Positions 2,431 to 53,383 of a stretch of DNA of 53,383 nt are shown here, one piece after another; the stretch's first letter is position 1; every line of letters begins with the position of its first letter. The position numbers and the translations under genes are program-made. Source of the DNA: Escherichia phage FXie-2024a. Location: the sequence record PP107930.1; one strand, written 5' to 3'. Below the pieces are notes generated by a model, which did no database searches, had not been told where the DNA came from, and saw nothing but the letters and a program-made list of their open reading frames with translations.

Positions 2431-3477
2431 TTAAGCCACTCGTTTCCAGAGGGCGTAGTAGTGAACGGAGTTGGTTACATCAAATGCCGTACCGCTTCCG
2501 GTTGAGGTTGTGGTGTTATTATTTGGGCCACCTGTAGTGAGGGCAGTCCCACCAGTGTTAGCAGCACTAGAGCCACCTGACGTGCCTTTAAAGTTGGGCA
2601 AGTCTACCTGGTGGAAGTGTACCCCACTTTCGCTAGCCGTACCATCCATGTCATGGTAGTGGTCGCCAGCCCACTCAACGTTACGCGTACCCACAGAGCC
2701 AGAGTTGGAGCCAGCAAACAGTACAGGACTGACGTTAGCGTTGTTACCAAACGTAGCTGCGTGGGTGTGGTTCCCGTTAGTTGTGGTACGTCCCGTCACT
2801 GCGTGGGAGTGTGCACCGTTGGGCGTTGAGTTGTGAAGTGGATGCTTGTGGTCTATGGCATGAGTATGCGTCATAGAGTGGGTGTGAGAGGCAATACCGT
2901 GCGTGTGGTTCTGCATTCCGTGAGTGTGTCCAGGAATGTTTGGCACAGCAAGAGTTACAGTATCAGAGCCACCAGTTGAGCCAATCTGACCTTCGGTTGT
3001 ACCAGCTTCGGCAGAGGTAGCAGCACGGACAGAACGACCATCGACAATTTGTTCCCACACAGTTCCTGTGAAGGAGTTGTTTGGGTTGGTGGCATTCTCG
3101 AACTTTAACACAATTCCAATTGGGTAGATGGCGTTGTAGATATTGTTGGCATTAATCAGTTCTCTCCACGGGGTCCAAGTCCGGACCCCAGCTCCCTGGT
3201 CTTGAGAACGAATCCACATACGGAGGTTGCCGAAGTTTGTATATCTCTGTATACAGTTGTCAGAAGTACCGGCATGGGTGAGAAGAACTTCCAAGTTGCC
3301 AGCTTCGGCACCAGCAGGGTATCCATTTGCCACTGTTGCGTTTGCGTTCTGGTTCTGGGGGAACGTACCTACATTATCTCTTCCCCACATATCGTTGATG
3401 TTCTTGGTCCCCAAGGAATCTACACTTTTAGCATAGTGTTCCTGGACCAGCGCATCTAAAGAATAACCTTTAGCCAT
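2431..3477 (-). CDS. Tail fiber protein, distal tip with His-x-His repeats
   Basis: 348 aa; run of HTHGMQNHTHGIASHTHSMTHTHAIDHKH resembling metal-binding HxH motifs of T4-type fiber tips; Gly/Thr-rich C-terminus. Confidence 0.6.
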   Translation of the reverse strand: MAKGYSLDALVQEHYAKSVDSLGTKNINDMWGRDNVGTFPQNQNANATVANGYPAGAEAGNLEVLLTHAGTSDNCIQRYTNFGNLRMWIRSQDQGAGVRTWTPWRELINANNIYNAIYPIGIVLKFENATNPNNSFTGTVWEQIVDGRSVRAATSAEAGTTEGQIGSTGGSDTVTLAVPNIPGHTHGMQNHTHGIASHTHSMTHTHAIDHKHPLHNSTPNGAHSHAVTGRTTTNGNHTHAATFGNNANVSPVLFAGSNSGSVGTRNVEWAGDHYHDMDGTASESGVHFHQVDLPNFKGTSGGSSAANTGGTALTTGGPNNNTTTSTGSGTAFDVTNSVHYYALWKRVA

Positions 3478-16211: not shown

Positions 16212-17660
16212 TTACTGAACGAAGTTGCCGGAGATAACTGCACCCTGCAATGCGCCAGAGCCAATTGCAATGAAGGAAGTACCTTCCCAGATTCGAGCAC
16301 CTTTCTGCGACTGCATCAGTGCCAAATCGGTAGACAATACTTTGTAACCATCTGCGTAGAAGGTTCCTTCGTTGTCATAACCTGGGGCGATTAAGCCATT
16401 GGTTACAGCCAGTTCCAGTGCCAGAGTTACTTGCTGGTTGACCAGAGCAACACCAGTGTCCGTCCAAGGAATCTTGGTAGTGGAGGTGTAGAACAGATTG
16501 AACACGTTCGCGCGAATCTTAGCAGTCAGCCAAGACACACCCTGAACAGTATCGAACCAAGTACCGTCAGCCATTTTGCCGTTGTAGAACATAGTGTTCC
16601 CACCAACGTTGATGAATGCGTTACCATTTACACGTTCGAGAGCAGCAAGCTGGTTCGGCGACAGGTCAGCAGTCTTGATAGCCGGACCTTGTTTGAATGC
16701 CAGAACAAGCGCAGAGTTTGCAACGTTAAAGTTGACAGTCGATGCACGACCCAGGATAGAGATTTCTGGATACTCGTCACCATTATCAGATGCATCATAA
16801 ACCAGCAGAGTACGCTGGAGGTTCTGTTCTTTGGCACGCTTGAAGCTGGAGTCTGCGCCAACAACAAGAATGTTCGGGTCATTATCGGCCCAACCAAACA
16901 CCTTCTCGTTTGCTTCTGCCCACTTAGCCACAGTCATCTGGTTATCGCCTGCAGCACTGCCGCGATATTTGCGGTCGATAGCTACGAAGAAGAAGTCGAA
17001 AGTTGAGTCCAGAATTGCAGACAGGTCAGAGCCGATAGACTTCTCGTCAATACCCTGAACAAATACAGGATTGGAAGCCGAATCCAGCTTGAATGCAGAA
17101 GCAGCAGAACCATACACACCACCGATTGAAGAGGTGCTTCCAGTGCTCATCGCAGAAATCTTGAACGTACCAGTGGTCTGGGACATAGTTGCTTCAATAC
17201 CAGCAGTTGCAAATGCAGCATTGACCATTGAGGCAACAGCATTAAAGTCGTTGGCAGAAGAGAAGTTGATAGGTGCAGTGCTTAAGTCTTTGCCATCAAT
17301 GTTGATAGAGATGACACCAGAAGTCAGTGCCTTAATCGTATCAAGGGTTGCAGCAGAGGATGCAGTCACAGTACCGTGAGTTGCAGGAACCGAAGTTTCA
17401 TTGGTAATTGCACCTACCAGGAAATACTTCGGAGTGGGTTTTTGAGAATACCACGCCAAAGCTGCATTATAAATTTCACCAGACGGGAAATCCGCAGACA
17501 CCGCAGCCATGCTCGTATATTGACGAACAGGAACTACTTCAGCAGCAGTCGGTGAAAACTCCTTCGAAAGAAAGAGTAGAGGACCAAAACCTTCCACAGC
17601 AACAGCGTTCGGACTAACCGCGATGTTAACTTGGATGATATCGGAAATTGGAATTGCCAT
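16212..17660 (-). CDS. Tail sheath protein
   Basis: 482 aa; size and position before the tube gene match a contractile sheath. Confidence 0.55.
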   Translation of the reverse strand: MAIPISDIIQVNIAVSPNAVAVEGFGPLLFLSKEFSPTAAEVVPVRQYTSMAAVSADFPSGEIYNAALAWYSQKPTPKYFLVGAITNETSVPATHGTVTASSAATLDTIKALTSGVISINIDGKDLSTAPINFSSANDFNAVASMVNAAFATAGIEATMSQTTGTFKISAMSTGSTSSIGGVYGSAASAFKLDSASNPVFVQGIDEKSIGSDLSAILDSTFDFFFVAIDRKYRGSAAGDNQMTVAKWAEANEKVFGWADNDPNILVVGADSSFKRAKEQNLQRTLLVYDASDNGDEYPEISILGRASTVNFNVANSALVLAFKQGPAIKTADLSPNQLAALERVNGNAFINVGGNTMFYNGKMADGTWFDTVQGVSWLTAKIRANVFNLFYTSTTKIPWTDTGVALVNQQVTLALELAVTNGLIAPGYDNEGTFYADGYKVLSTDLALMQSQKGARIWEGTSFIAIGSGALQGAVISGNFVQ

Positions 17661-18173
17661 TTAGATTCCCTTTATGAGGATGGGTTCGTTGCCATCATAG
17701 AATATGCCGCCAACACTGGCATCAGACATTGTACCGATTGGCATAACATCTTCACGAAGAACATTAAATTTCATTTGGATTCCTTCACGGAATTCCCAAT
17801 TCGTTTCAAGTGTTGTCGAGGCAAGATTCAATTGTGTTTTGTCCAGTGCAGCAAAGCCTTTGCTCTTAAGCATGGCCAGTACATCAGGACGGAAGAAGGA
17901 ATTATCAAACTTCACATACTCACTCCCGCGACGCGAGAAGAGAATATAGAAAGTCAGTATTCGAATTCCTCTTGTTACAAATACTTCCTCGCCATTACGA
18001 ACTTCGATACGAGTTTCATCGAAGCCAGGGTTAACAGATGACGCACATTTAATTGCGGCATAGTTATCGGCAGGTCGAGGTGCGTTTAATTGCATCTCAT
18101 AAGAGAAGCGTGGAATGCCAACGCAAACATCCACAATATCTTTCATTGCCTGAATGTCGTCGTCATAAGTCAT
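17661..18173 (-). CDS. Head-tail joining or tail terminator protein (putative)
   Basis: 170 aa ORF between head and tail modules. Confidence 0.35.
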   Translation of the reverse strand: MTYDDDIQAMKDIVDVCVGIPRFSYEMQLNAPRPADNYAAIKCASSVNPGFDETRIEVRNGEEVFVTRGIRILTFYILFSRRGSEYVKFDNSFFRPDVLAMLKSKGFAALDKTQLNLASTTLETNWEFREGIQMKFNVLREDVMPIGTMSDASVGGIFYDGNEPILIKGI

Positions 18174-33502: not shown

Positions 33503-35266
33503 TTATTGGTGTGGACCGTTCTTCTTAGTAAGTTGAACAATCTCTTTAGTTTCGAACAGCGAGTCTTCCCAAGAACGTTGAATGATTCGACCTGAGTCTG
33601 TGTCATAGTACGTCTTGAAGCCTTCTGTTTTACCACTCTTACGAGCTTTGATGGAACGAATAATAGAACAGTTTGGGTCTACTGCCTGACTATTACGTTC
33701 AAAGCCAAACATACCATGAGAATACTTAGCAGCAGCACGAGAGCCAGTAAAGTCTGACTTCTTGATACGTCCACCATCTTCATGAGGTCGCTGACCTTTT
33801 GCCACAGGGTTAAGGTGCGACAGAATATTAACGTGGAACTGGTACTGGTCTGCTAACTTTGTAATGTCTGCATACAGCTTACCTAAGAAGTCGTTCTTCT
33901 CTGAGGCAGAAATCCCTTCCGATAAGTAGGTTAAGTTATCAAGAACAAACATATCAATGTCTGGACCAATCTGACGAAGAATCGTCTTCAACCCATCCCA
34001 AGTTTCATAAGGGTCTTCTCCAGCTTGCTTGCGGTCCCAAATCTCCATGTTACGAAGCATCTTCGCAGCAGTTTGACGGAACTTCACTTCATCGTATCGA
34101 GGGTCTTCACGAGTAAACGCAGGTTCCCAATACGGCAAGTTGTCATTAAGGCCAGCCATACGGCGTAATGTTTCCGCAGGAGTTTCTTCCATGTATGCAG
34201 TAAACACTCCCCAATCATGCTGAATAATATTGTGATGCACAATCTGACGAGAAAGTGTAGTCTTACCACCACCTTCTGCACCACCGATTGAGATAACTTC
34301 GGCACGACGTTGACCAAACATTAAGTCGGTTAACTTAGTCCAGGGATAGTCCACACCCTGTTCAACTTCGTCATCAAGCTCTTCCATAAGAAGTTCTTTA
34401 TCGACAAGAGCTGTGGGCAGAGGTCGGGCAGCACGGAATACAACAGCAGATTGAGTAGCTTTAAGCAAGCCACGCTTCAGACAATCGTTGGCATCATTAG
34501 CTGGAAGAGTTGCAATCATTGCACCAGGCAACAATCGGCACGCTTCCTTAGCAGCTTTACGCCCAGGTTCATCATCATCAAATACGATAACAACCTGCTC
34601 CCAACGTTGCTTAATTTCTTCTGCAACTGGTGACAAACATTTGTGTACGGAATCGCTTCCATCACTCAAACTAATTACAGCAAAATCCAAATCTTCATAT
34701 GCACCACCACGGTTCATGGTCTTCAAGATTTGACGCAATGCGATACAGTCTTCTTCACCTTCTGTGATGAACAGTGTCTTACCGCCAATTGCTTTTGCGG
34801 CCATCCAGTTGTAAGGGTCGTTACCCTGGGTGTCGCCAACCGACCACATAACTTTCTTGTTCAGAAGTTTAATCTTCCAACGAACAAGTTTACCATTTTT
34901 GGTGTAGCCATGTGCCAGAGCATTTGGAGTCTTTCCATCATACTCTGAATACAGAAGTCGGACACCAGCAGCTTTCCAGAAATCTGGTTCAATACTGCGA
35001 TGGTCTAAATCAAACGGAGGACAAGCAGTGACTTCATCAATTTCTTCCTGAATTTCTTCTGGAGTTTTGACTTTAATCTCTGGAATGTTCTCCGGATTAT
35101 TGCCATAAGGATTTGGTACTAGAACGCCACATGCAAAGCAGTAACCAGAAAAGTTCTTATTACCAGCTTCATCGACATTCAACCAAACCTGTAAAGACTT
35201 GCCAGATGTGGATTTACAGTCTGGTACATCGTGCTTAATCTTAGCCACACATTGCTTGACGTTCAT
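33503..35266 (-). CDS. Primase-helicase (T7 gp4-like)
   Basis: 587 aa; N-terminal Cys-rich zinc-binding region; helicase Walker A GGAEGGGKTT. Confidence 0.75.
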   Translation of the reverse strand: MNVKQCVAKIKHDVPDCKSTSGKSLQVWLNVDEAGNKNFSGYCFACGVLVPNPYGNNPENIPEIKVKTPEEIQEEIDEVTACPPFDLDHRSIEPDFWKAAGVRLLYSEYDGKTPNALAHGYTKNGKLVRWKIKLLNKKVMWSVGDTQGNDPYNWMAAKAIGGKTLFITEGEEDCIALRQILKTMNRGGAYEDLDFAVISLSDGSDSVHKCLSPVAEEIKQRWEQVVIVFDDDEPGRKAAKEACRLLPGAMIATLPANDANDCLKRGLLKATQSAVVFRAARPLPTALVDKELLMEELDDEVEQGVDYPWTKLTDLMFGQRRAEVISIGGAEGGGKTTLSRQIVHHNIIQHDWGVFTAYMEETPAETLRRMAGLNDNLPYWEPAFTREDPRYDEVKFRQTAAKMLRNMEIWDRKQAGEDPYETWDGLKTILRQIGPDIDMFVLDNLTYLSEGISASEKNDFLGKLYADITKLADQYQFHVNILSHLNPVAKGQRPHEDGGRIKKSDFTGSRAAAKYSHGMFGFERNSQAVDPNCSIIRSIKARKSGKTEGFKTYYDTDSGRIIQRSWEDSLFETKEIVQLTKKNGPHQ

Positions 35267-35270
35267 TTAT

Positions 35271-35921
35271 TTATTCCTGGTTGGTCAGAGCCTTCCAACA
35301 AATTGGGAACAGTTCTGACATAATTTTATTCACTTCTTCCGCAAACAAGCGAACTTCATATTGCGCATGTTCGGAGGAACGTTGATTATACATAGATGCC
35401 CAGCCATAAAGTGAGCCAGTCCAAATCCATTCAGTCATCATGGATTGTGGAAGAACCATGCGAGCTTGCTCTGGGGCAATCCCCAAACCAATTAACGTTT
35501 CATACTCTGCAATGCAAGCCTTGTTGTGGCTTTCCATGCGATAATGAATGTCATCAGCAAAATCTTGCGGCAACGGTTGTGCAGTCTGAGTCATCAACTT
35601 CTCAGGACGACCGAATACAACACCTGGTACAAAGCATTCAATCGAGATTGCTTCACCATCTTTGTAACGACGGCTAACCTCATTCCAACTAAAGCCAGTT
35701 TGGTGTTTGCCAAGCTGACGTGCAATGAAGATTGGGGCCTTGCAGCGAAGAGTTACCTGTGCGTGACGAAATGGAGTAATGTGCTTATGCTTTGCAAGAA
35801 ACTCAATCAGCTTCTCGTCTCGCAAGGACATTTCATGCGACTCTGCACCATAGGAAACTCGTGCAGCATTAACAGTTGTAAGGTCGTCGCCCATGCGGTC
35901 GACAAGTGTTGCAGTAATCAT
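35271..35921 (-). CDS. ThyX-family protein with altered nucleotide-binding motif
   Basis: 216 aa; aligns along its length with flavin-dependent thymidylate synthase as recalled (AARVSY, KAPIFIARQ, SEHAQYE), but the RHR motif reads KHQ. Confidence 0.65.
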   Translation of the reverse strand: MITATLVDRMGDDLTTVNAARVSYGAESHEMSLRDEKLIEFLAKHKHITPFRHAQVTLRCKAPIFIARQLGKHQTGFSWNEVSRRYKDGEAISIECFVPGVVFGRPEKLMTQTAQPLPQDFADDIHYRMESHNKACIAEYETLIGLGIAPEQARMVLPQSMMTEWIWTGSLYGWASMYNQRSSEHAQYEVRLFAEEVNKIMSELFPICWKALTNQE

Positions 35922-35977
35922 TTGCTCTCCGGTTCATATGGTGGGAGATTAATTAGCTCCGCACCATAACAATGGTA

Positions 35978-36208
35978 TTATTTTAATGACGCCTGGATTT
36001 CTTTCATAGACGCATTTAGTACAGAACGCTTTTCATATTCGCGTTGATTGTACGTGTTTGTCAGTGCTTCCGCAGCTTCTATTGACAAGATTGCAAAACC
36101 ACCAAAGGCATTGCGAACTTCTTCAATATCCATGTGCAGGACTTCACTTGTGATTTGGCTTGCTATTACGGCCTTATAAATCTCTTCGGCAATTTCAGCA
36201 GTTTTCAT
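35978..36208 (-). CDS. Hypothetical protein
   Basis: 76 aa ORF. Confidence 0.4.
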   Translation of the reverse strand: MKTAEIAEEIYKAVIASQITSEVLHMDIEEVRNAFGGFAILSIEAAEALTNTYNQREYEKRSVLNASMKEIQASLK

Positions 36209-36605
36209 GTTTCTCTCCAGTTAAAATTTAAGTAAGTGTCCTGACGTGAACTGTTACAAAACACTTATTAAATTTGATTCGAACCGCCCAAGTGAATCAG
36301 CCTTGTTTATGGGGGACCATCGGGGAAAAGTATAAACCCGCTTAATGCTCGCATCATGTTTGAACATTAAGAACCCTCGACTTGCATATTTCATGTGTAT
36401 AGGAACATAGTCTGGATTTTGAATCCAGCTAACTTCGGATGAGGAGTAACCCAAATAAAAGCCTGAACTTTCTTTCTGCACAACACAATCAGCGCAACTA
36501 AGCCGTATCGCTACGGTATGCCAGACGCTCGCTTGAGCCTTTTGAACAGAGGCATAACTGTTGGAGGAAAATGGTAGCCGATACGTTGGCCAGACGCTGT
36601 GATAT

Positions 36606-36806
36606 TTAACAAGGGTCACTATCAGGTTCTGTCAACTTCTTGCGAAGGAATGTGTCTTCTGCGTTATACAGAAATGCGTAATAAAGCTGCTTTGCCTTAT
36701 GTCGGCTACAACCTAGAGCTACCTGAATTTCTTGATACTGATATGTACGCACCTCATTATTAATGATTGCGTTACGAATGATTGCACGAATGCTAATTTT
36801 GTCCAT
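36606..36806 (-). CDS. Hypothetical small protein
   Basis: 66 aa ORF preceded by AAGGTAG ribosome-binding site. Confidence 0.3.
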   Translation of the reverse strand: MDKISIRAIIRNAIINNEVRTYQYQEIQVALGCSRHKAKQLYYAFLYNAEDTFLRKKLTEPDSDPC

Positions 36807-37417
36807 AGAAGACTACCTTATATGTGATTGAGGTTGCGGCCTTTACGCGGCCAACGTGCCATTAATGCTGGCAAGACAGAGCTAACGTTCTCAAGCACTT
36901 TGGCGAGGATGTTCTCGGACACTGTTTTAGGAAGTGACCACCTGAACGTCTCGTGTTCATTACGTTGACTTTACGGAGTCATCGGAGCTTCGTTCTCAAG
37001 CACGCCGTTTTCTTCTTTGGCCGGAGTCAAGCCGCAAGCCTTTGTCTCGGTGGACTAACCTTCTCACACTAACGATGTGTAGCGGGACGTTCCAATCCTA
37101 GGAGGCAGCAATTTTAATTGTTATGCCCAGAGCAACGTGCGGGCTTTCACCGACTTCCTCGAAAGGTTGGGTTCACGTTATTTATAGTCGCGCATCCCAC
37201 TCGACTGCCAAATGTTGTTGATGCGATGGCGAGCATTTGTTTCACTGTACTTGTTTATAGATGCAACAGGCTCATCTTGTTCACTCACTGTCGGGTAAGT
37301 TTAGAACACTTTTGTGCCCACGTTTCATTGTGGACTAAAATCTGTGTTTTGGTTTCGCGTGACAAAACTTTTACTTCTGCAACATCCAAATAGATTGGTT
37401 GTGCAATCAAGCAGTAG

Positions 37418-37654
37418 TCACTTACGAACCCACTTTGAGAGCAACTCGTTATCGACATTGCTATCAGAACTGCTGCTAACTTCTTTCTGAACATGCGATT
37501 TAATCTCGATAGATTCTTTTAACGAATCGAATTGCTTCTCTTTGGCTTCCTGACGCTCCTCGGCTTTGCCTGAGCTTTTGCCTTTGAGGAACACTGCAAG
37601 GAGAATGCCCAATGCAGTCAAGACGCCAAGAAAGATTGACTTAAGCTGTTGCAT
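37418..37654 (-). CDS. Small membrane protein (N-terminal TM helix plus charged tail)
   Basis: 78 aa; hydrophobic IFLGVLTALGILLAVFL then a Lys/Glu-rich region. Confidence 0.45.
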   Translation of the reverse strand: MQQLKSIFLGVLTALGILLAVFLKGKSSGKAEERQEAKEKQFDSLKESIEIKSHVQKEVSSSSDSNVDNELLSKWVRK

Positions 37655-37661
37655 GAATCAC

Positions 37662-37802
37662 CTTAGATGGCGCACGCACCACTTGAGCAGTCGTTATCAC
37701 CAGCACCAGGAACGATTGCTTCTTCGTCCTGCTTCTTCTTGAGTTCTTCAATTGCTTCTTCGGCAGCACCGAAGTCCAAATTGTCTAATGCATCAAAATC
37801 CA
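37662..37802 (-). CDS. Unlisted 46-aa acidic peptide
   Basis: ATG at 37800..37802 to TAA at 37662..37664; MDFDALDNLDFGAAEEAIEELKKK...DCSSGACAI; between the tRNA-like element and the membrane-protein gene. Confidence 0.25.
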
Positions 37803-37831
37803 TGAGGACTCCATGTTTGTTGTTGAGAGTG

Positions 37832-37924
37832 GCGGACGAGGTTGGGTTCGAACCAACGACACATCTGTCTTACAGATTGCTCTACCTGACTAAGCTCTGG
37901 AGCAGACCTTCTGAGCTACTCGTC
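37832..37924 (-). tRNA. tRNA-like element with non-canonical D region
   Basis: 7-bp acceptor pairing (GGACGAG / CTCGTCC), canonical T arm GTTGG-TTCGAAC-CCAAC, discriminator G and encoded CCA. About 93 nt; D and anticodon arms do not fold canonically. Confidence 0.4.
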
Positions 37925-38305
37925 CAGAATAAGGTGGGGGGTTTTGGTAACGCAGGTTTTCCCAAACTGCGAGGCTTGTAGCAAGACAGTCGCATTACTT
38001 TGCGAATGCCAGCAGGATTGATGGTCCGACCGTCTTTGCTTAGGCAACCTGATTTAATCTACCTTTGTAGATACCATCGGTTAGAGTAGTTTATTTCCAT
38101 GCTCAGGGCAATTCACTTATGCGAATTAGGTTACGCAGTGCAGCTTCGAAGTCACTGCCACAGGTTTGAGGTTTCCTGTGTGGAGGGAAATCCAGAGGAG
38201 CACTTCCTCAAGGAGTTACGTTTCATATTGGCATAGCTTCTCACACTAAACCAATTGAAGACATTCCAGTGTGCTCGTCCGTCCTCTAGAAATATCCAAC
38301 TGCAT

Positions 38306-38465
38306 AATTAAGTTTGTACTCTGTCACATCCCCACGCGCACTGAGGGACTTAAGCCTGCATTGCATCGCAGAATACAAATTGATAATTAAGTTTGTACTC
38401 TGTCACACTGCATCGCCAAGATGTGCAGCCTAAGGTTATCGGTTCATCGCAGAATACAAATTAAT
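38306..38465 (-). repeat. Tandem pair of ~80-bp imperfect palindromic elements
   Basis: Two adjacent units with conserved ends (AAGTTTGTACTCTGTCACA ... CATCGCAGAATACAAATT) that are inverted repeats of each other, enclosing different ~45-nt cores. Confidence 0.5.
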
Positions 38466-38635
38466 TATTGCTCCGATTTATTAATCACATCTCGAAGCCA
38501 CAATGCGCCAAATTTGGTTACATGGGATTGGAAGACCACGGAGAGAACTTAAATCTAATTAAGCTGCAACTCGCATTTCAGAATCATTTGCACTTGTGTT
38601 TAGTGTTTAAAACAGTCGCATAATAACGAAATGAA

Positions 38636-38691
38636 AACTACTTCAATAACACCACTCGTAAGTAATGTTATTGAAGCCCTCTCGTAAGAGG
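38636..38691 (-). terminator. Putative intrinsic terminator (double hairpin)
   Basis: Immediately after the stop of the 38703..39041 gene: CCTCT-TACG-AGAGG hairpin, then a 10-bp stem CTTCAATAAC / GTTATTGAAG, then a U-rich tract. Confidence 0.4.
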
Positions 38692-38702
38692 ACTCCATTG
38701 TC

Positions 38703-39041
38703 TTAGAATACCGGAGCTTCTTCAACAGCAGCTTCGGCAGCTTCGGCAACACTTGCGTCAGCAACTTTAGCTTCTTTCGGAGTGTCGAACGCAACACGTT
38801 CAACTTCAGGACAACCAGCTTCAACCCACGGCAGGTAGAATGCCAGGAAGGATGCAACGGTGTTGCTCTGCATGGAGCGAGAACGGTCAACCAGTTTCAT
38901 GGTGTTAGCAAATGCTTCAACAGCTGCGTCGATTTTAGCACCGTTTTCCAGTTTAAAATCGTGTGCGTTACATTCTGCTTCGCTCAGGAACAGGGAACCA
39001 TCGTTAGCTTCGTACTGGGTTACGGTTACAATCTTAGCCAT
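38703..39041 (-). CDS. Hypothetical acidic protein
   Basis: 113 aa from MAKIVTV (ATG 39039..39041) with AAGGT ribosome-binding site; the annotated longer start overlaps an upstream motif. Confidence 0.45.
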   Translation of the reverse strand: MAKIVTVTQYEANDGSLFLSEAECNAHDFKLENGAKIDAAVEAFANTMKLVDRSRSMQSNTVASFLAFYLPWVEAGCPEVERVAFDTPKEAKVADASVAEAAEAAVEEAPVF

Positions 39042-39116
39042 TTGTATATACCTTATATTAAATAGTTTTGCACGCCACGGTGACGTGACTGTAGATAGAT
39101 TAAAGAGCCTTTCTCT

Positions 39117-39134
39117 TTTCACATCCAATTAATG
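39117..39134 (-). promoter_or_regulatory. Copy of recurrent 18-bp motif, about 76 nt upstream of the 38703..39041 gene
   Basis: Plus strand TTCACATCCAATTAATGT. Confidence 0.35.
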
Positions 39135-39164
39135 TGTCAGGACTGCTCTGATTTAACAAACAAC

Positions 39165-39839
39165 TCAATACATATTGAATCGTTCGATTGATTTAATCAC
39201 TAAATCCTTTGTCTCAGCGACAGTGAGTTCAGTTGTAATCGAGTCGTCAATGCCCTCGATTTGAATTGCAACAAAACGTCCCACACCTGTTACAGTCATG
39301 CGGTTGGTTCGGTCACGGATAATCACACCAGCTTCACCCTCAACAGCACGAAGCAGTTTCCAACGAAGTGTGCGATTCGGCACAGCAAAGCCCTTTGTCG
39401 AGAACAACTCTTTCATGAGTTCCCCAAGGCAAACAGCTTCAATGTTCATTCCTCTTCCAACTAATTCTTGCAACAGGCACAATGTCAACATTTCTAAATT
39501 GTTGAAGTGTCCAGCGCGCTCCAGATTAAAGAACTCTGGAGGAACAGTTGAGCGGGATTTAACAGCTTGCTTATATGCACGTTCTTCTTCTTGTGCAGCA
39601 AGCATGAGCATCTCTGGTTTGATGTATTTCATCGCAGAGAAGCCAGCGCGAGTGGCTTTAATGATTCGGCAAGCCTCTTTCATTTTGTAGCGTTGCCACT
39701 CACCGCGTTTAGATTCTGGATTAAAATGGACCCACATGATGATAACATCTTCCTTGGCAAGATAGACGGCATCATTATCATTGAGCCACTGCTTGCACGT
39801 AGAAAGTGCAATTTCTTTGTCATCATCATGATAAGACAT
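39165..39839 (-). CDS. Hypothetical protein
   Basis: 224 aa early ORF. Confidence 0.45.
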   Translation of the reverse strand: MSYHDDDKEIALSTCKQWLNDNDAVYLAKEDVIIMWVHFNPESKRGEWQRYKMKEACRIIKATRAGFSAMKYIKPEMLMLAAQEEERAYKQAVKSRSTVPPEFFNLERAGHFNNLEMLTLCLLQELVGRGMNIEAVCLGELMKELFSTKGFAVPNRTLRWKLLRAVEGEAGVIIRDRTNRMTVTGVGRFVAIQIEGIDDSITTELTVAETKDLVIKSIERFNMY

Positions 39840-53256: not shown

Positions 53257-53383
53257 TTATAATATTGCCACAATTCTAGTCTCGTTAATATTGAACAAAT
53301 TCGAGTCTCCAATATCGTAACAATTCTAGTCTCTTTAATTCTGTAGCAATATTCGAAATAAAAAAAAAATTATAAAAAAAAAA
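53257..53383. repeat. Right copy of 127-bp terminal direct repeat
   Basis: Identical to 1..127; the window ends exactly at the repeat end. Confidence 0.6.

Follow-up and report, generated by a model that had tools for sequence, protein, structure and literature searches.

A covarying, pseudoknotted candidate RNA upstream of thyX in Escherichia phage FXie-2024a and related Chaseviridae

The genome of Escherichia phage FXie-2024a (sequence record PP107930.1) is complete and Carltongylesvirus-like (Chaseviridae, Cleopatravirinae), with JL1, SKA49, GJ1, ST32 and the Yersinia PYps phages as its nearest relatives. We analyzed the whole 53,383-nucleotide (nt) stretch, called the window below, with attention to a block poor in open reading frames (ORFs) at 36250-37400, which the original prediction had suggested to hold degraded transfer RNA (tRNA) genes or other small stable RNAs. 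All genes around this block lie on the minus strand, as do the RNA elements described below, and published descriptions of these phages give a single orientation for all ORFs. On one side stand a primase/helicase gene (33503-35266), thyX (35271-35921) and a gene of 76 amino acids (aa; 35978-36208), and on the other an Rz1-like and an Rz-like spanin (together 37285-37654) and a 46-aa ORF (37663-37803). Because a 66-aa ORF inside the block (36606-36806; phrog_9565, E=3.4e-26) and the 69-aa ORF of the Rz1-like spanin (37285-37494; phrog_1275, E=2.6e-19) are real phage protein families, the non-coding sequence proper falls into two separate stretches, 36209-36605 (397 nt) and a gap at 36807-37284 (478 nt), and the final 115 nt of the block are part of the spanin gene. 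The block therefore contains little coding sequence, as had been described, but it is not uniform, since it contains a real gene and part of the Rz1-like spanin. In GJ1, Faunus, 4HA13, ST32, Bp10, Aioli, Fifi44 and Calisson, about 0.9-1.5 kb of mostly unannotated DNA likewise separates the small gene after thyX from the spanins; the 66-aa gene was found, among the loci, only in JL1, PYps3T and L017. Our main subject is an element of about 300 nt in the first of the two non-coding stretches, block A (36270-36570), which conservation and covariation mark as a structured RNA. Positions within it are given as r numbers, where r is 36591 minus the window coordinate, so that block A covers r21-r321.

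About 45 Carltongylesvirus records matched the sequence at 36209-36610 with 90-98% identity, and three more distant genomes, those of Erwinia phage Faunus, Sabourvirus 4HA13 and Aeromonas phage phiA050, matched it with 72-77%. When the latter three genomes were compared with window positions 35900-39000 by blastn, the aligned segments were almost solely the non-coding blocks A, B, C1/C2 and T (the last four are described below), the sole exception being 37289-37369, a short piece of the Rz1 ORF at its 3' end. The ThyX proteins of the same phages were 68-73% identical to that of the window. The sequence of the block is thus kept across genera more strongly than the DNA of the neighboring genes. 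Profile searches and motif scans recovered more diverged homologs in Loessnervirus (the Y2 group and Pantoea SSEM1), in the Pectobacterium PM1/PP101 group, in IMG/VR and in metagenomes, and in total we gathered 27 distinct block A sequences. The element, common to a whole phage subfamily, is present in about 80 sequenced phage records from at least five genera, among them biocontrol phages of E. coli, Erwinia, Pectobacterium and Yersinia. The matches from IMG/VR and metagenomes were Chaseviridae-sized contigs, so that every match was a phage record or a phage-sized contig, and a search of 185,579 bacterial and archaeal genomes gave no match. In all 31 loci long enough to show it, thyX lay downstream of block A, at a distance of 330-960 nt. 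The first ORF downstream varies by genus; in Calisson, about 950 nt with two annotated ORFs lie between block A and thyX.

None of the genome records that we inspected carries an RNA annotation for block A, and we found no paper on these phages that mentions a non-coding RNA. Most records leave the place of the element blank. In Erwinia phage Y2 (HQ728264), the homolog at approximately 17409-17763 is overlain by three small annotated genes, gp43-45, and homologs in some other records are overlain by "hypothetical proteins". These are probably RNA that has been mis-annotated as protein genes.

In alignments of block A, invariant stretches alternate with hairpins of wholly different yet complementary sequence, and we derived a structure manually on an alignment of 21 sequences. 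The model begins with an H-type pseudoknot, PK1 (36537-36561), whose stem a (r30-33:r42-45) and stem b (r38-41:r51-54) are both 100% canonical, with changes on both sides at three and two pairs, respectively; ACAG/CUGU is replaced by GUGG/CCAC, for example, and GCCU/AGGC by UCUU/AAGA. A long-range helix, P2 (36379-36526; r65-74:r203-212), encloses the central domain. It is near-invariant, with a single both-side change (C71-G206 to U-A in four sequences) and a pair r66:r211 that is U·U, U·G or U-A, and C-G in Loessnervirus. Inside P2, the hairpin P3 (36503-36516; r75-79:r84-88) has the form CCGUA-GCGA-UACGG with a GNRA tetraloop, and its stem becomes GUGUA/UACAC in 4HA13, with two compensatory pairs, and CUGGA/UCCAG in Loessnervirus. 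P4 (r104-108:r193-197) and P8 (r115-117:r186-188), which together span 36394-36487, follow. In P4 an A-U pair changes to U-A in seven sequences and a U-A pair to G-C in PM1, and UGUGU/ACACA is replaced by GUUGC/GCAAC in Loessnervirus. The hairpins P5, P6 and P7 belong to a four-way junction that P8 closes; the GAA/UUC of P8 becomes GGG/CCC in TH23 and GAG/CUC in L025.

The three hairpins of the junction differ in how they are conserved. P5 (36457-36472) is hypervariable: unrelated sequences fold as a hairpin at the same position in 7 of 8 distinct type-1 sequences tested, one having no predicted fold, a count that leaves out eight Loessnervirus-like sequences that the extraction pattern did not fit. 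P6 (36433-36455) carries an 11-nt loop, UUACUCCUCAU (36439-36449). All groups including Loessnervirus keep the core of this loop, CUCCU(C), and three pairs of the stem change on both sides. P7 (36412-36428) is the variable hairpin CTGGATTTTGAATCCAG, with a 7-bp stem and a 3-nt loop; its counterparts are GAGUA..UACUC in 4HA13, GAGUA..UGCUC in L017 and CUACAU..AUGUGG in L032, and L025 has none. In the 3' domain (36311-36376), P9 (r215-217:r278-280) encloses P10 (r220-250) and P11 (r251-254:r267-270). P9 is weak and hardly varies. P10 is again hypervariable, with 13 of 14 different sequences predicted to fold as a hairpin closing there (L027 has the inner stem only) and both-side changes at three pairs, and P11 alternates between CGGG/CCCG and CAGG/CCUG. 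A second H-type pseudoknot, PK2 (36275-36305; r286-290:r298-302 and r292-297:r311-316), completes the model and holds the sequence GATTCGAACC. The variants of its stems include, for one, UGAUUC/GAAUCA, AGUCC/GGACU, GGUC/GACC and GAUUCC/GGAAUC and, for the other, CAAGG/CUUGG, GCAG/CUGU and GGAA/UUCC. The diverged Loessnervirus version of block A keeps PK1, P2, P3, P4 and the CUCCUC loop.

Over the 54 pairs of this model, 92.5% of the cells in the 21-sequence alignment were canonical, and 24 pairs (68 cells) had changed on both sides. None of 500 shuffles reached these values. As a further control we slid the 3' partner of each helix by one to three columns, which left 30-47% pairing and 5-12 both-side-changed pairs. 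The helices of block A are therefore maintained by compensatory change beyond the controls. RNAalifold, run on a mixed MAFFT alignment of all 27 sequences, gave no more than 8 pairs owing to misalignment of the Loessnervirus group, and the output of an all-against-all naive stem finder consisted mostly of alignment artefacts.

The same alignment identifies the strand. Read on the minus strand, the helices contain 47 G·U cells and 6 A·C cells, and because G·U exceeds A·C we assign block A to the minus strand, which is the gene strand. Many of the G·U cells come from the single P6 position U138·G155, a wobble in 19 of 21 sequences that a plus-strand reading would turn into A·C; independent cases occur in PK1b, P8, P6, P9 and P10. 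In addition, the P3 loop GCGA fits the GNRA consensus on the minus strand only. We had considered a plus-strand reading, with a GGAGG resembling a Shine-Dalgarno (SD) sequence and a start codon past the pseudoknot. We rejected it on the asymmetry between G·U and A·C and on the hairpins with variable loops that occupy the place of the would-be plus-strand ORF.

The longest ORF of the interval, of 121 aa at 36254-36619, overlies block A. The original prediction had called its composition unlike that of a protein, and our searches bear this out: no Pfam or PHROG family matched at E≤0.01, so that the protein homology named there as a test was looked for and not found, and the frame is open in the FXie-2024a genome only. 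In the homologous segment of 20 relatives the longest stop-free stretch was at most 70 codons, compared with 111 here. The frame depends on two 1-nt length differences from all 20 relatives, both in homopolymer G runs (36311-36315, given as a C5 run on the minus strand, and 36437-36438). These may be sequencing errors, and one of them costs helix P6 one base pair. The counterpart of the ORF is left unannotated in almost all relatives. Although it lies on the gene strand and is the longest frame available, the ORF is spurious, and we regard the idea that it is a genuine protein gene as virtually untenable.

Two motifs had been read as traces of tRNA genes. The T-loop-like GATTCGAACC is present at 36276-36285, but it is the 3' arm and loop of PK2 and is not kept as a T-loop: relatives have GGUUCGGAC, GAUUCGACC, GAUACGACC, AAGCCGAAA or GGUUAGGAA at this site, and the GGUUCGAAUC at 36276-36285 is without a complementary T-arm stem. 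The anticodon-like hairpin CTGGATTTTGAATCCAG is likewise present at 36412-36428, but it is the variable helix P7, which relatives replace with unrelated stems or lack. That no complete cloverleaf exists in the block was correct, as ARAGORN found no tRNA in the window and the Rfam scan at E≤10 found none in 36240-37300; lowering the ARAGORN thresholds to 70-90% gave scattered calls on both strands that are noise only. Both motifs therefore sit in covariation-supported helices of another fold and are not conserved as a T-loop or an anticodon arm, and decaying pseudogenes would not show 72-98% identity across genera together with compensatory changes. True tRNAs and CCA-ending tRNA-like elements do occur among the modules of relatives, as described below, and nearby lies a tRNA with an insert in its D-loop, whose gene is gained and lost between close relatives (PMC8762354). 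With ARAGORN and Rfam negative in 36250-37400 even in relaxed mode, we nevertheless consider it extremely improbable that the block consists of degraded tRNA genes with these motifs as their remnants. The other half of the proposal, that the block holds small stable RNAs of some other kind, is supported at sequence level by the conserved folds with compensatory changes, and relatives have true tRNA genes among the modules.

Block A belongs to a chain of elements that, in the order of the RNA, runs C2, C1, D, B, the 66-aa gene, a mini-helix with an ACCA end, block A and lastly module Z. The modules in 36807-37284 vary between genomes in presence and order (Faunus and L017 have C1 and C2 the other way round), and single modules are up to 92-96% identical between Escherichia and Erwinia phages. 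Module C2 (37132-37208) has a hairpin GUCG..CGAC whose loop pairs downstream to form an H-type pseudoknot, followed by two hairpins that covary. Different phages have UGGG/CCCA, UGAG/CUCA, UGAAU/AUUCA or GGAGU/ACUCU in the pseudoknot, pairings that we extracted sequence by sequence, the MAFFT alignment being offset there. In module C1 (37087-37138) a hairpin precedes AAAUUGCUGCCUCC; the 12-nt loop of this hairpin, CUCUGGGCAUAA, is conserved, and its stem occurs as GUUG/CAAU, AUUG/CAAU, GGUG/CACC or AGUG/CACU. Module D (36964-37096) was found, among the loci, only in SKA49, Bp10 and 4HA13. Module B (36860-36975), which is up to 94-96% identical in Erwinia phages, has three hairpins, the second with the loop UCCUAAAAC; 6 of its 15 pairs changed on both sides, and on four of five measures none of 500 shuffles scored as high.

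Modules B and D account for a duplicated word reported earlier for the block. An exact 13-mer, CGTTCTCAAGCAC, does occur twice, at 36886-36898 in module B (copy 1) and 36991-37003 in module D (copy 2), but the 14-mer differs at its first base. Near the 3' ends of both modules, a small hairpin (UGAG-loop-CUC) has the word as its 5' half, and in Faunus the GAG..CUC becomes GGG..CCC. Allowing up to two mismatches, the window contains three matches compared with 1.41 expected, a count reached in 16 of 100 shuffles; despite this chance-level count, the 13-mer is conserved across phage genera.

The two elements that flank block A also appear to be folded. The remnant of module Z (36234-36267), a hairpin AAGUGUUUUG...CGUCAGGACACUU, separates block A from the 76-aa gene. 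In relatives Z is about 44-110 nt longer with the same closing helix, which, in an alignment read by eye, changes in a compensatory manner from AAGUGUCUUGGC/GUCAGGACACUU in GJ1 to GAGCAUCUUGGC/GUCAGGGUGCUC in Faunus. Directly 5' of block A is the mini-helix ending in ACCA, GGCCAACGUAUCGGCUACCA (36572-36591), likewise read by eye, which has the compensatory form GACC..GGUC in TH23. At the same site, other phages have an acceptor-like helix followed by a CCA end, with a T-arm in phiA050 and Aioli (read by eye). Calisson has a tRNA (Rfam 32.5 bits) that abuts block A at its 5' edge, and L025 has one (46 bits) between module B and block A. In JL1, MLP1 and TH23, the ACCA mini-helix and block A are separated by an additional element of about 100 nt (L001 2170-2276; L008 and L009 at approximately 3005-3130) that is absent from the window. 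Its acceptor-like stem of 7 bp is GGAUUCG/CGAAUCC, an atypical hairpin stands where the T-arm would be, and it ends in CCA; Rfam did not recognize it as a tRNA.

The nearby tRNA of the window itself lies upstream of the spanins at 37833-37925 (Rfam 39.2 bits), with a 24-nt insert in its D-loop, and was missed by default ARAGORN. Its anticodon loop is GUUCGAC (UCG, Arg) in most of the close relatives, GUAAGAC (AAG) in the window and GUUAGGC (UAG) in JL1; the D-loop insert exists in two sequence versions, and the gene is precisely absent from PYps3T. Its 5' acceptor strand, GGACGAG, recurs 355 nt upstream at 38280-38257 in the context GGACGAGCACACUGGAAUGUCUUC. This second copy is conserved in relatives, including the tRNA-less PYps3T, and ARAGORN at low thresholds joins it with the 3' half of the tRNA as a "tmRNA".

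The conserved folds could in principle act as single-stranded DNA (ssDNA), either to start replication, as an origin or a single-strand initiation signal, or as hairpin promoters of the phage RNA polymerase. The block adjoins the replication module (thyX and primase/helicase), and G·T wobbles are tolerated in DNA hairpins, so that the strand asymmetry described above is compatible with ssDNA. According to the ICTV profile of this family, its promoters are still unidentified (PMC12842549). Helices of 3-4 bp, nested junctions and covarying H-type pseudoknots, on the other hand, typify tertiary folds of RNA and not DNA signals. We saw neither iterons nor an AT-rich unwinding region, the conserved 5' motif of C2 and the other motifs are single-copy, and the region is not a genome end. 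We therefore regard a role as ssDNA as highly improbable. The C2 5' motif had also been considered as a promoter for a phage polymerase, and we rejected it: it occurs once in the genome, which argues against a general promoter, and its loop is engaged in a covarying pseudoknot. Elsewhere, a motif of about 23 nt (minus-strand sense ACATTAGTTGGA) has at least seven copies in the early-gene region (39119-39145, 41299, 41489, 41627, 45729, 49813 and 50666) and matches the annotation "putative phage promoter 7" in GJ1.

A genome terminus or terminal repeat at the locus was rejected on the basis of the PYps23T record, in which the region lies 13-15 kb from the start; the zero point of that record was set to match related phages, and its terminal repeats were determined experimentally. 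Three records, those of BSBP01, Ecp_YSF and 2KOFFS, begin within this region or close to it. For the family Chaseviridae, terminal repeats of 2.3-3 kb have been reported. The ends of the window, 1-127 and 53257-53383, are identical over 127 nt, and because this identity is an assembly overlap the window is a circularised whole-genome contig and its ends are not physical ends.

A further non-coding element, T (38450-38680), contains a start-less mini-frame at 38560-38592 that reads GCA AAU GAU UCU GAA AUG CGA GUU GCA GCU UAA and would encode ANDSEMRVAA. The tag added by enterobacterial SsrA, or transfer-messenger RNA (tmRNA), is ANDENYALAA, which the peptide of T resembles. The frame is kept with synonymous changes across all genera examined, with the variants ANDSEMRMVA, ANDSEIRVAA, ANDNEMRAVA and ANDNEMRAAA. 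In element T, an A/U-rich stretch and a small hairpin precede the tag frame, after which come a hairpin that holds the stop codon and two pseudoknots that covary. Between T and the tRNA, at 38294-38470, are three direct repeats, each about 80 nt long and with cores 89-92% identical.

We asked how block A might relate to this element. T and block A are the two non-coding elements present in every genus examined, and the island is rich in pseudoknots and tRNA-like ends. Together with the conserved SsrA-like frame and the stop-codon hairpin and pseudoknots that follow it, this would suit an unconventional split tmRNA-like system made up of block A, T and the CCA-ending tRNA-like neighbors. A convincing tRNA-like domain was not found for T, however, and one with the alanine identity pair was found for neither T nor block A. 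ARAGORN called a tmRNA at T only when its thresholds were lowered to 80-90%, taking the tRNA halves from a coding gene or the neighboring tRNA, and the Rfam tmRNA models, whose thresholds are 47-50 bits, scored 14-19. We identified no stretch in which block A and T are complementary, and three protein genes lie between them. A split tmRNA thus seems very doubtful to us. With the SsrA-like tag element, interference of these phages with ribosome rescue becomes a possibility open to test.

A constant place upstream of thyX would also be expected of a cis-acting leader, that is, a riboswitch or protein-binding operator for the downstream small ORF, thyX and the primase/helicase operon, which perhaps senses a nucleotide or folate metabolite. 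The position and orientation of block A are constant, 330-960 nt upstream of thyX wherever a locus has enough flank; it runs in the direction of the genes; and a pseudoknotted fold with many junctions is what riboswitch aptamers typically show. The first gene downstream changes from genus to genus, however, and two genes intervene in Calisson. Module Z, with an insertion/deletion of 44 nt, separates block A from the start codon, and neither a terminator nor an alternative pairing that sequesters the SD sequence was seen between block A and the 76-aa gene, Z lacking a U-tract and leaving the SD sequence free. With about 300 nt and about 11 helices, block A is bigger than almost all known aptamers, and no Rfam riboswitch matched. 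We consider a leader possible but on the unlikely side.

The reading that we favor, to which we assign a probability of roughly one half on the strength of the sequence comparisons, is that the ORF-poor block is part of an RNA island in this Cleopatravirinae phage, composed of minus-strand modules, and that block A is a processed, stable, trans-acting RNA. The island would be transcribed within a long gene-strand transcript, from which host RNA-processing enzymes would cut out the modules, with the tRNA genes and CCA-ending tRNA-like elements of relatives serving as punctuation. Block A would then accumulate as a stable trans-acting RNA, perhaps as a scaffold for a ribonucleoprotein (RNP) or by binding a host or phage partner through the conserved, exposed, CU-rich loop UUACUCCUCAU, and would not be a switch for the downstream gene. 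We prefer a free RNA to a leader because the downstream ORF varies, because folded module Z stands between block A and the next start codon with no terminator or SD-sequestering helix seen, because tRNAs abut or interleave with the element, and because CCA-ending elements precede it.

Several points weigh against this reading. Minimum free energy (MFE) z-scores were not significant on either strand, at +0.10 and +0.16 for block A and +1.03 and -0.06 for 36807-37290, and the case for structure therefore rests on covariation. The sequences are related, so that the shuffle controls overstate significance, and several helices of block A (P2 and P9) scarcely vary. Processing at the tRNA-like elements is an analogy rather than a result, and our search of literature and data found no transcriptome of a Chaseviridae phage. 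A cis-acting leader would account for the position upstream of thyX in 31 of 31 loci as well. The P6 loop gave no target, as its complement, ATGAGGAGTAA, has no better-than-chance match elsewhere in the phage genome. CU-rich pentamers are mildly enriched in the island, at about 5 per kb compared with 1.8, and other bins are similar; that the CU-rich loops mimic the anti-Shine-Dalgarno sequence is weak speculation.

Large covarying RNAs with multiple pseudoknots and junctions are rare, and those with a solved function are usually ribozymes, riboswitches or RNP cores. A bolder suggestion, which we think unlikely, is that block A represents a new class of large functional RNA, a ribozyme or RNP core, in a phage "translation-RNA island" together with tRNAs, tRNA-like CCA modules and the start-less SsrA-like tag element. 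If it were true, lytic Cleopatravirinae phages would use self-encoded RNAs to manipulate translation or ribosome rescue in the host. Recognizing block A corrects blank or spurious "hypothetical protein" annotation, as in gp43-45 of Y2 and the 121-aa ORF, and provides a defined target for RNA sequencing, probing and deletion work. It also offers a lytic-phage model in E. coli for the role of large structured phage RNAs beside tRNA genes.

To compare the region with known RNAs, we used the 4227 models of Rfam 15, scanning the window and 13 relatives at gathering thresholds and 36000-39200 and 36240-37300 at E≤10. There was no credible match in the interval, the sole item at E≤10 being a meaningless 12.6-bit match to a long non-coding RNA. 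A tRNA or Rfam scan had been suggested as a way to refute stable RNAs in the block; taken literally the result is zero hits, but the explanation is that block A would be an RNA outside every described family. Identity as a tmRNA, RNase P RNA or group I intron was rejected, as no model matched and the topology is another one. In block A, PK1 is followed by P2 enclosing P3 and P4 with its junction, then by P9 enclosing P10 and P11, and by PK2, which is unlike the P3-P7 core of group I introns, and the flanking ORFs are complete and separate.

Among individual systems, tRNA (RF00005) shares with block A the GGUUCGAAUC-like and stem-loop words and, in relatives, the tRNA neighbors, but block A has no cloverleaf. 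Like tmRNA, the island has several H-type pseudoknots and, in neighboring element T, an SsrA-like tag frame; block A itself lacks a tag frame, a tRNA-like domain and a CCA end, and the Rfam tmRNA models were negative. Riboswitches and other leader RNAs resemble block A in their conserved junctions and pseudoknots and in a place upstream of, and on the same strand as, genes such as thyX and the replication genes. Unlike riboswitches, block A is without an expression platform and exceeds known aptamers in size; the gene that directly follows it varies, and it matched no Rfam riboswitch.

Closer parallels come from other phages. The tRNA cluster of T4 yields species 1 and 2 RNAs, stable non-tRNA RNAs that are cut from a common transcript by tRNA-processing enzymes. 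Block A shares with them the setting among phage tRNAs, but it is about twice as long and pseudoknotted, and its processing is putative; no sequence relation to these RNAs was seen, though no search for one was made. ROOL and GOLLD are large "ornate" phage-associated RNAs of about 580 and 800 nt with complex pseudoknotted folds, found in Firmicutes prophages and in lake and rumen samples, and their biochemical function is unknown. Like them, block A is phage-encoded, tRNA-adjacent and non-coding, with a multi-helix, pseudoknotted, covarying fold. It differs in its length of about 300 nt and in its occurrence in lytic phages of Gram-negative Enterobacterales and Aeromonas, and in a comparison made through the Rfam models only it gave no match to either. 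Set beside these systems, the sequence evidence indicates that the region holds a previously undescribed family of structured RNA.

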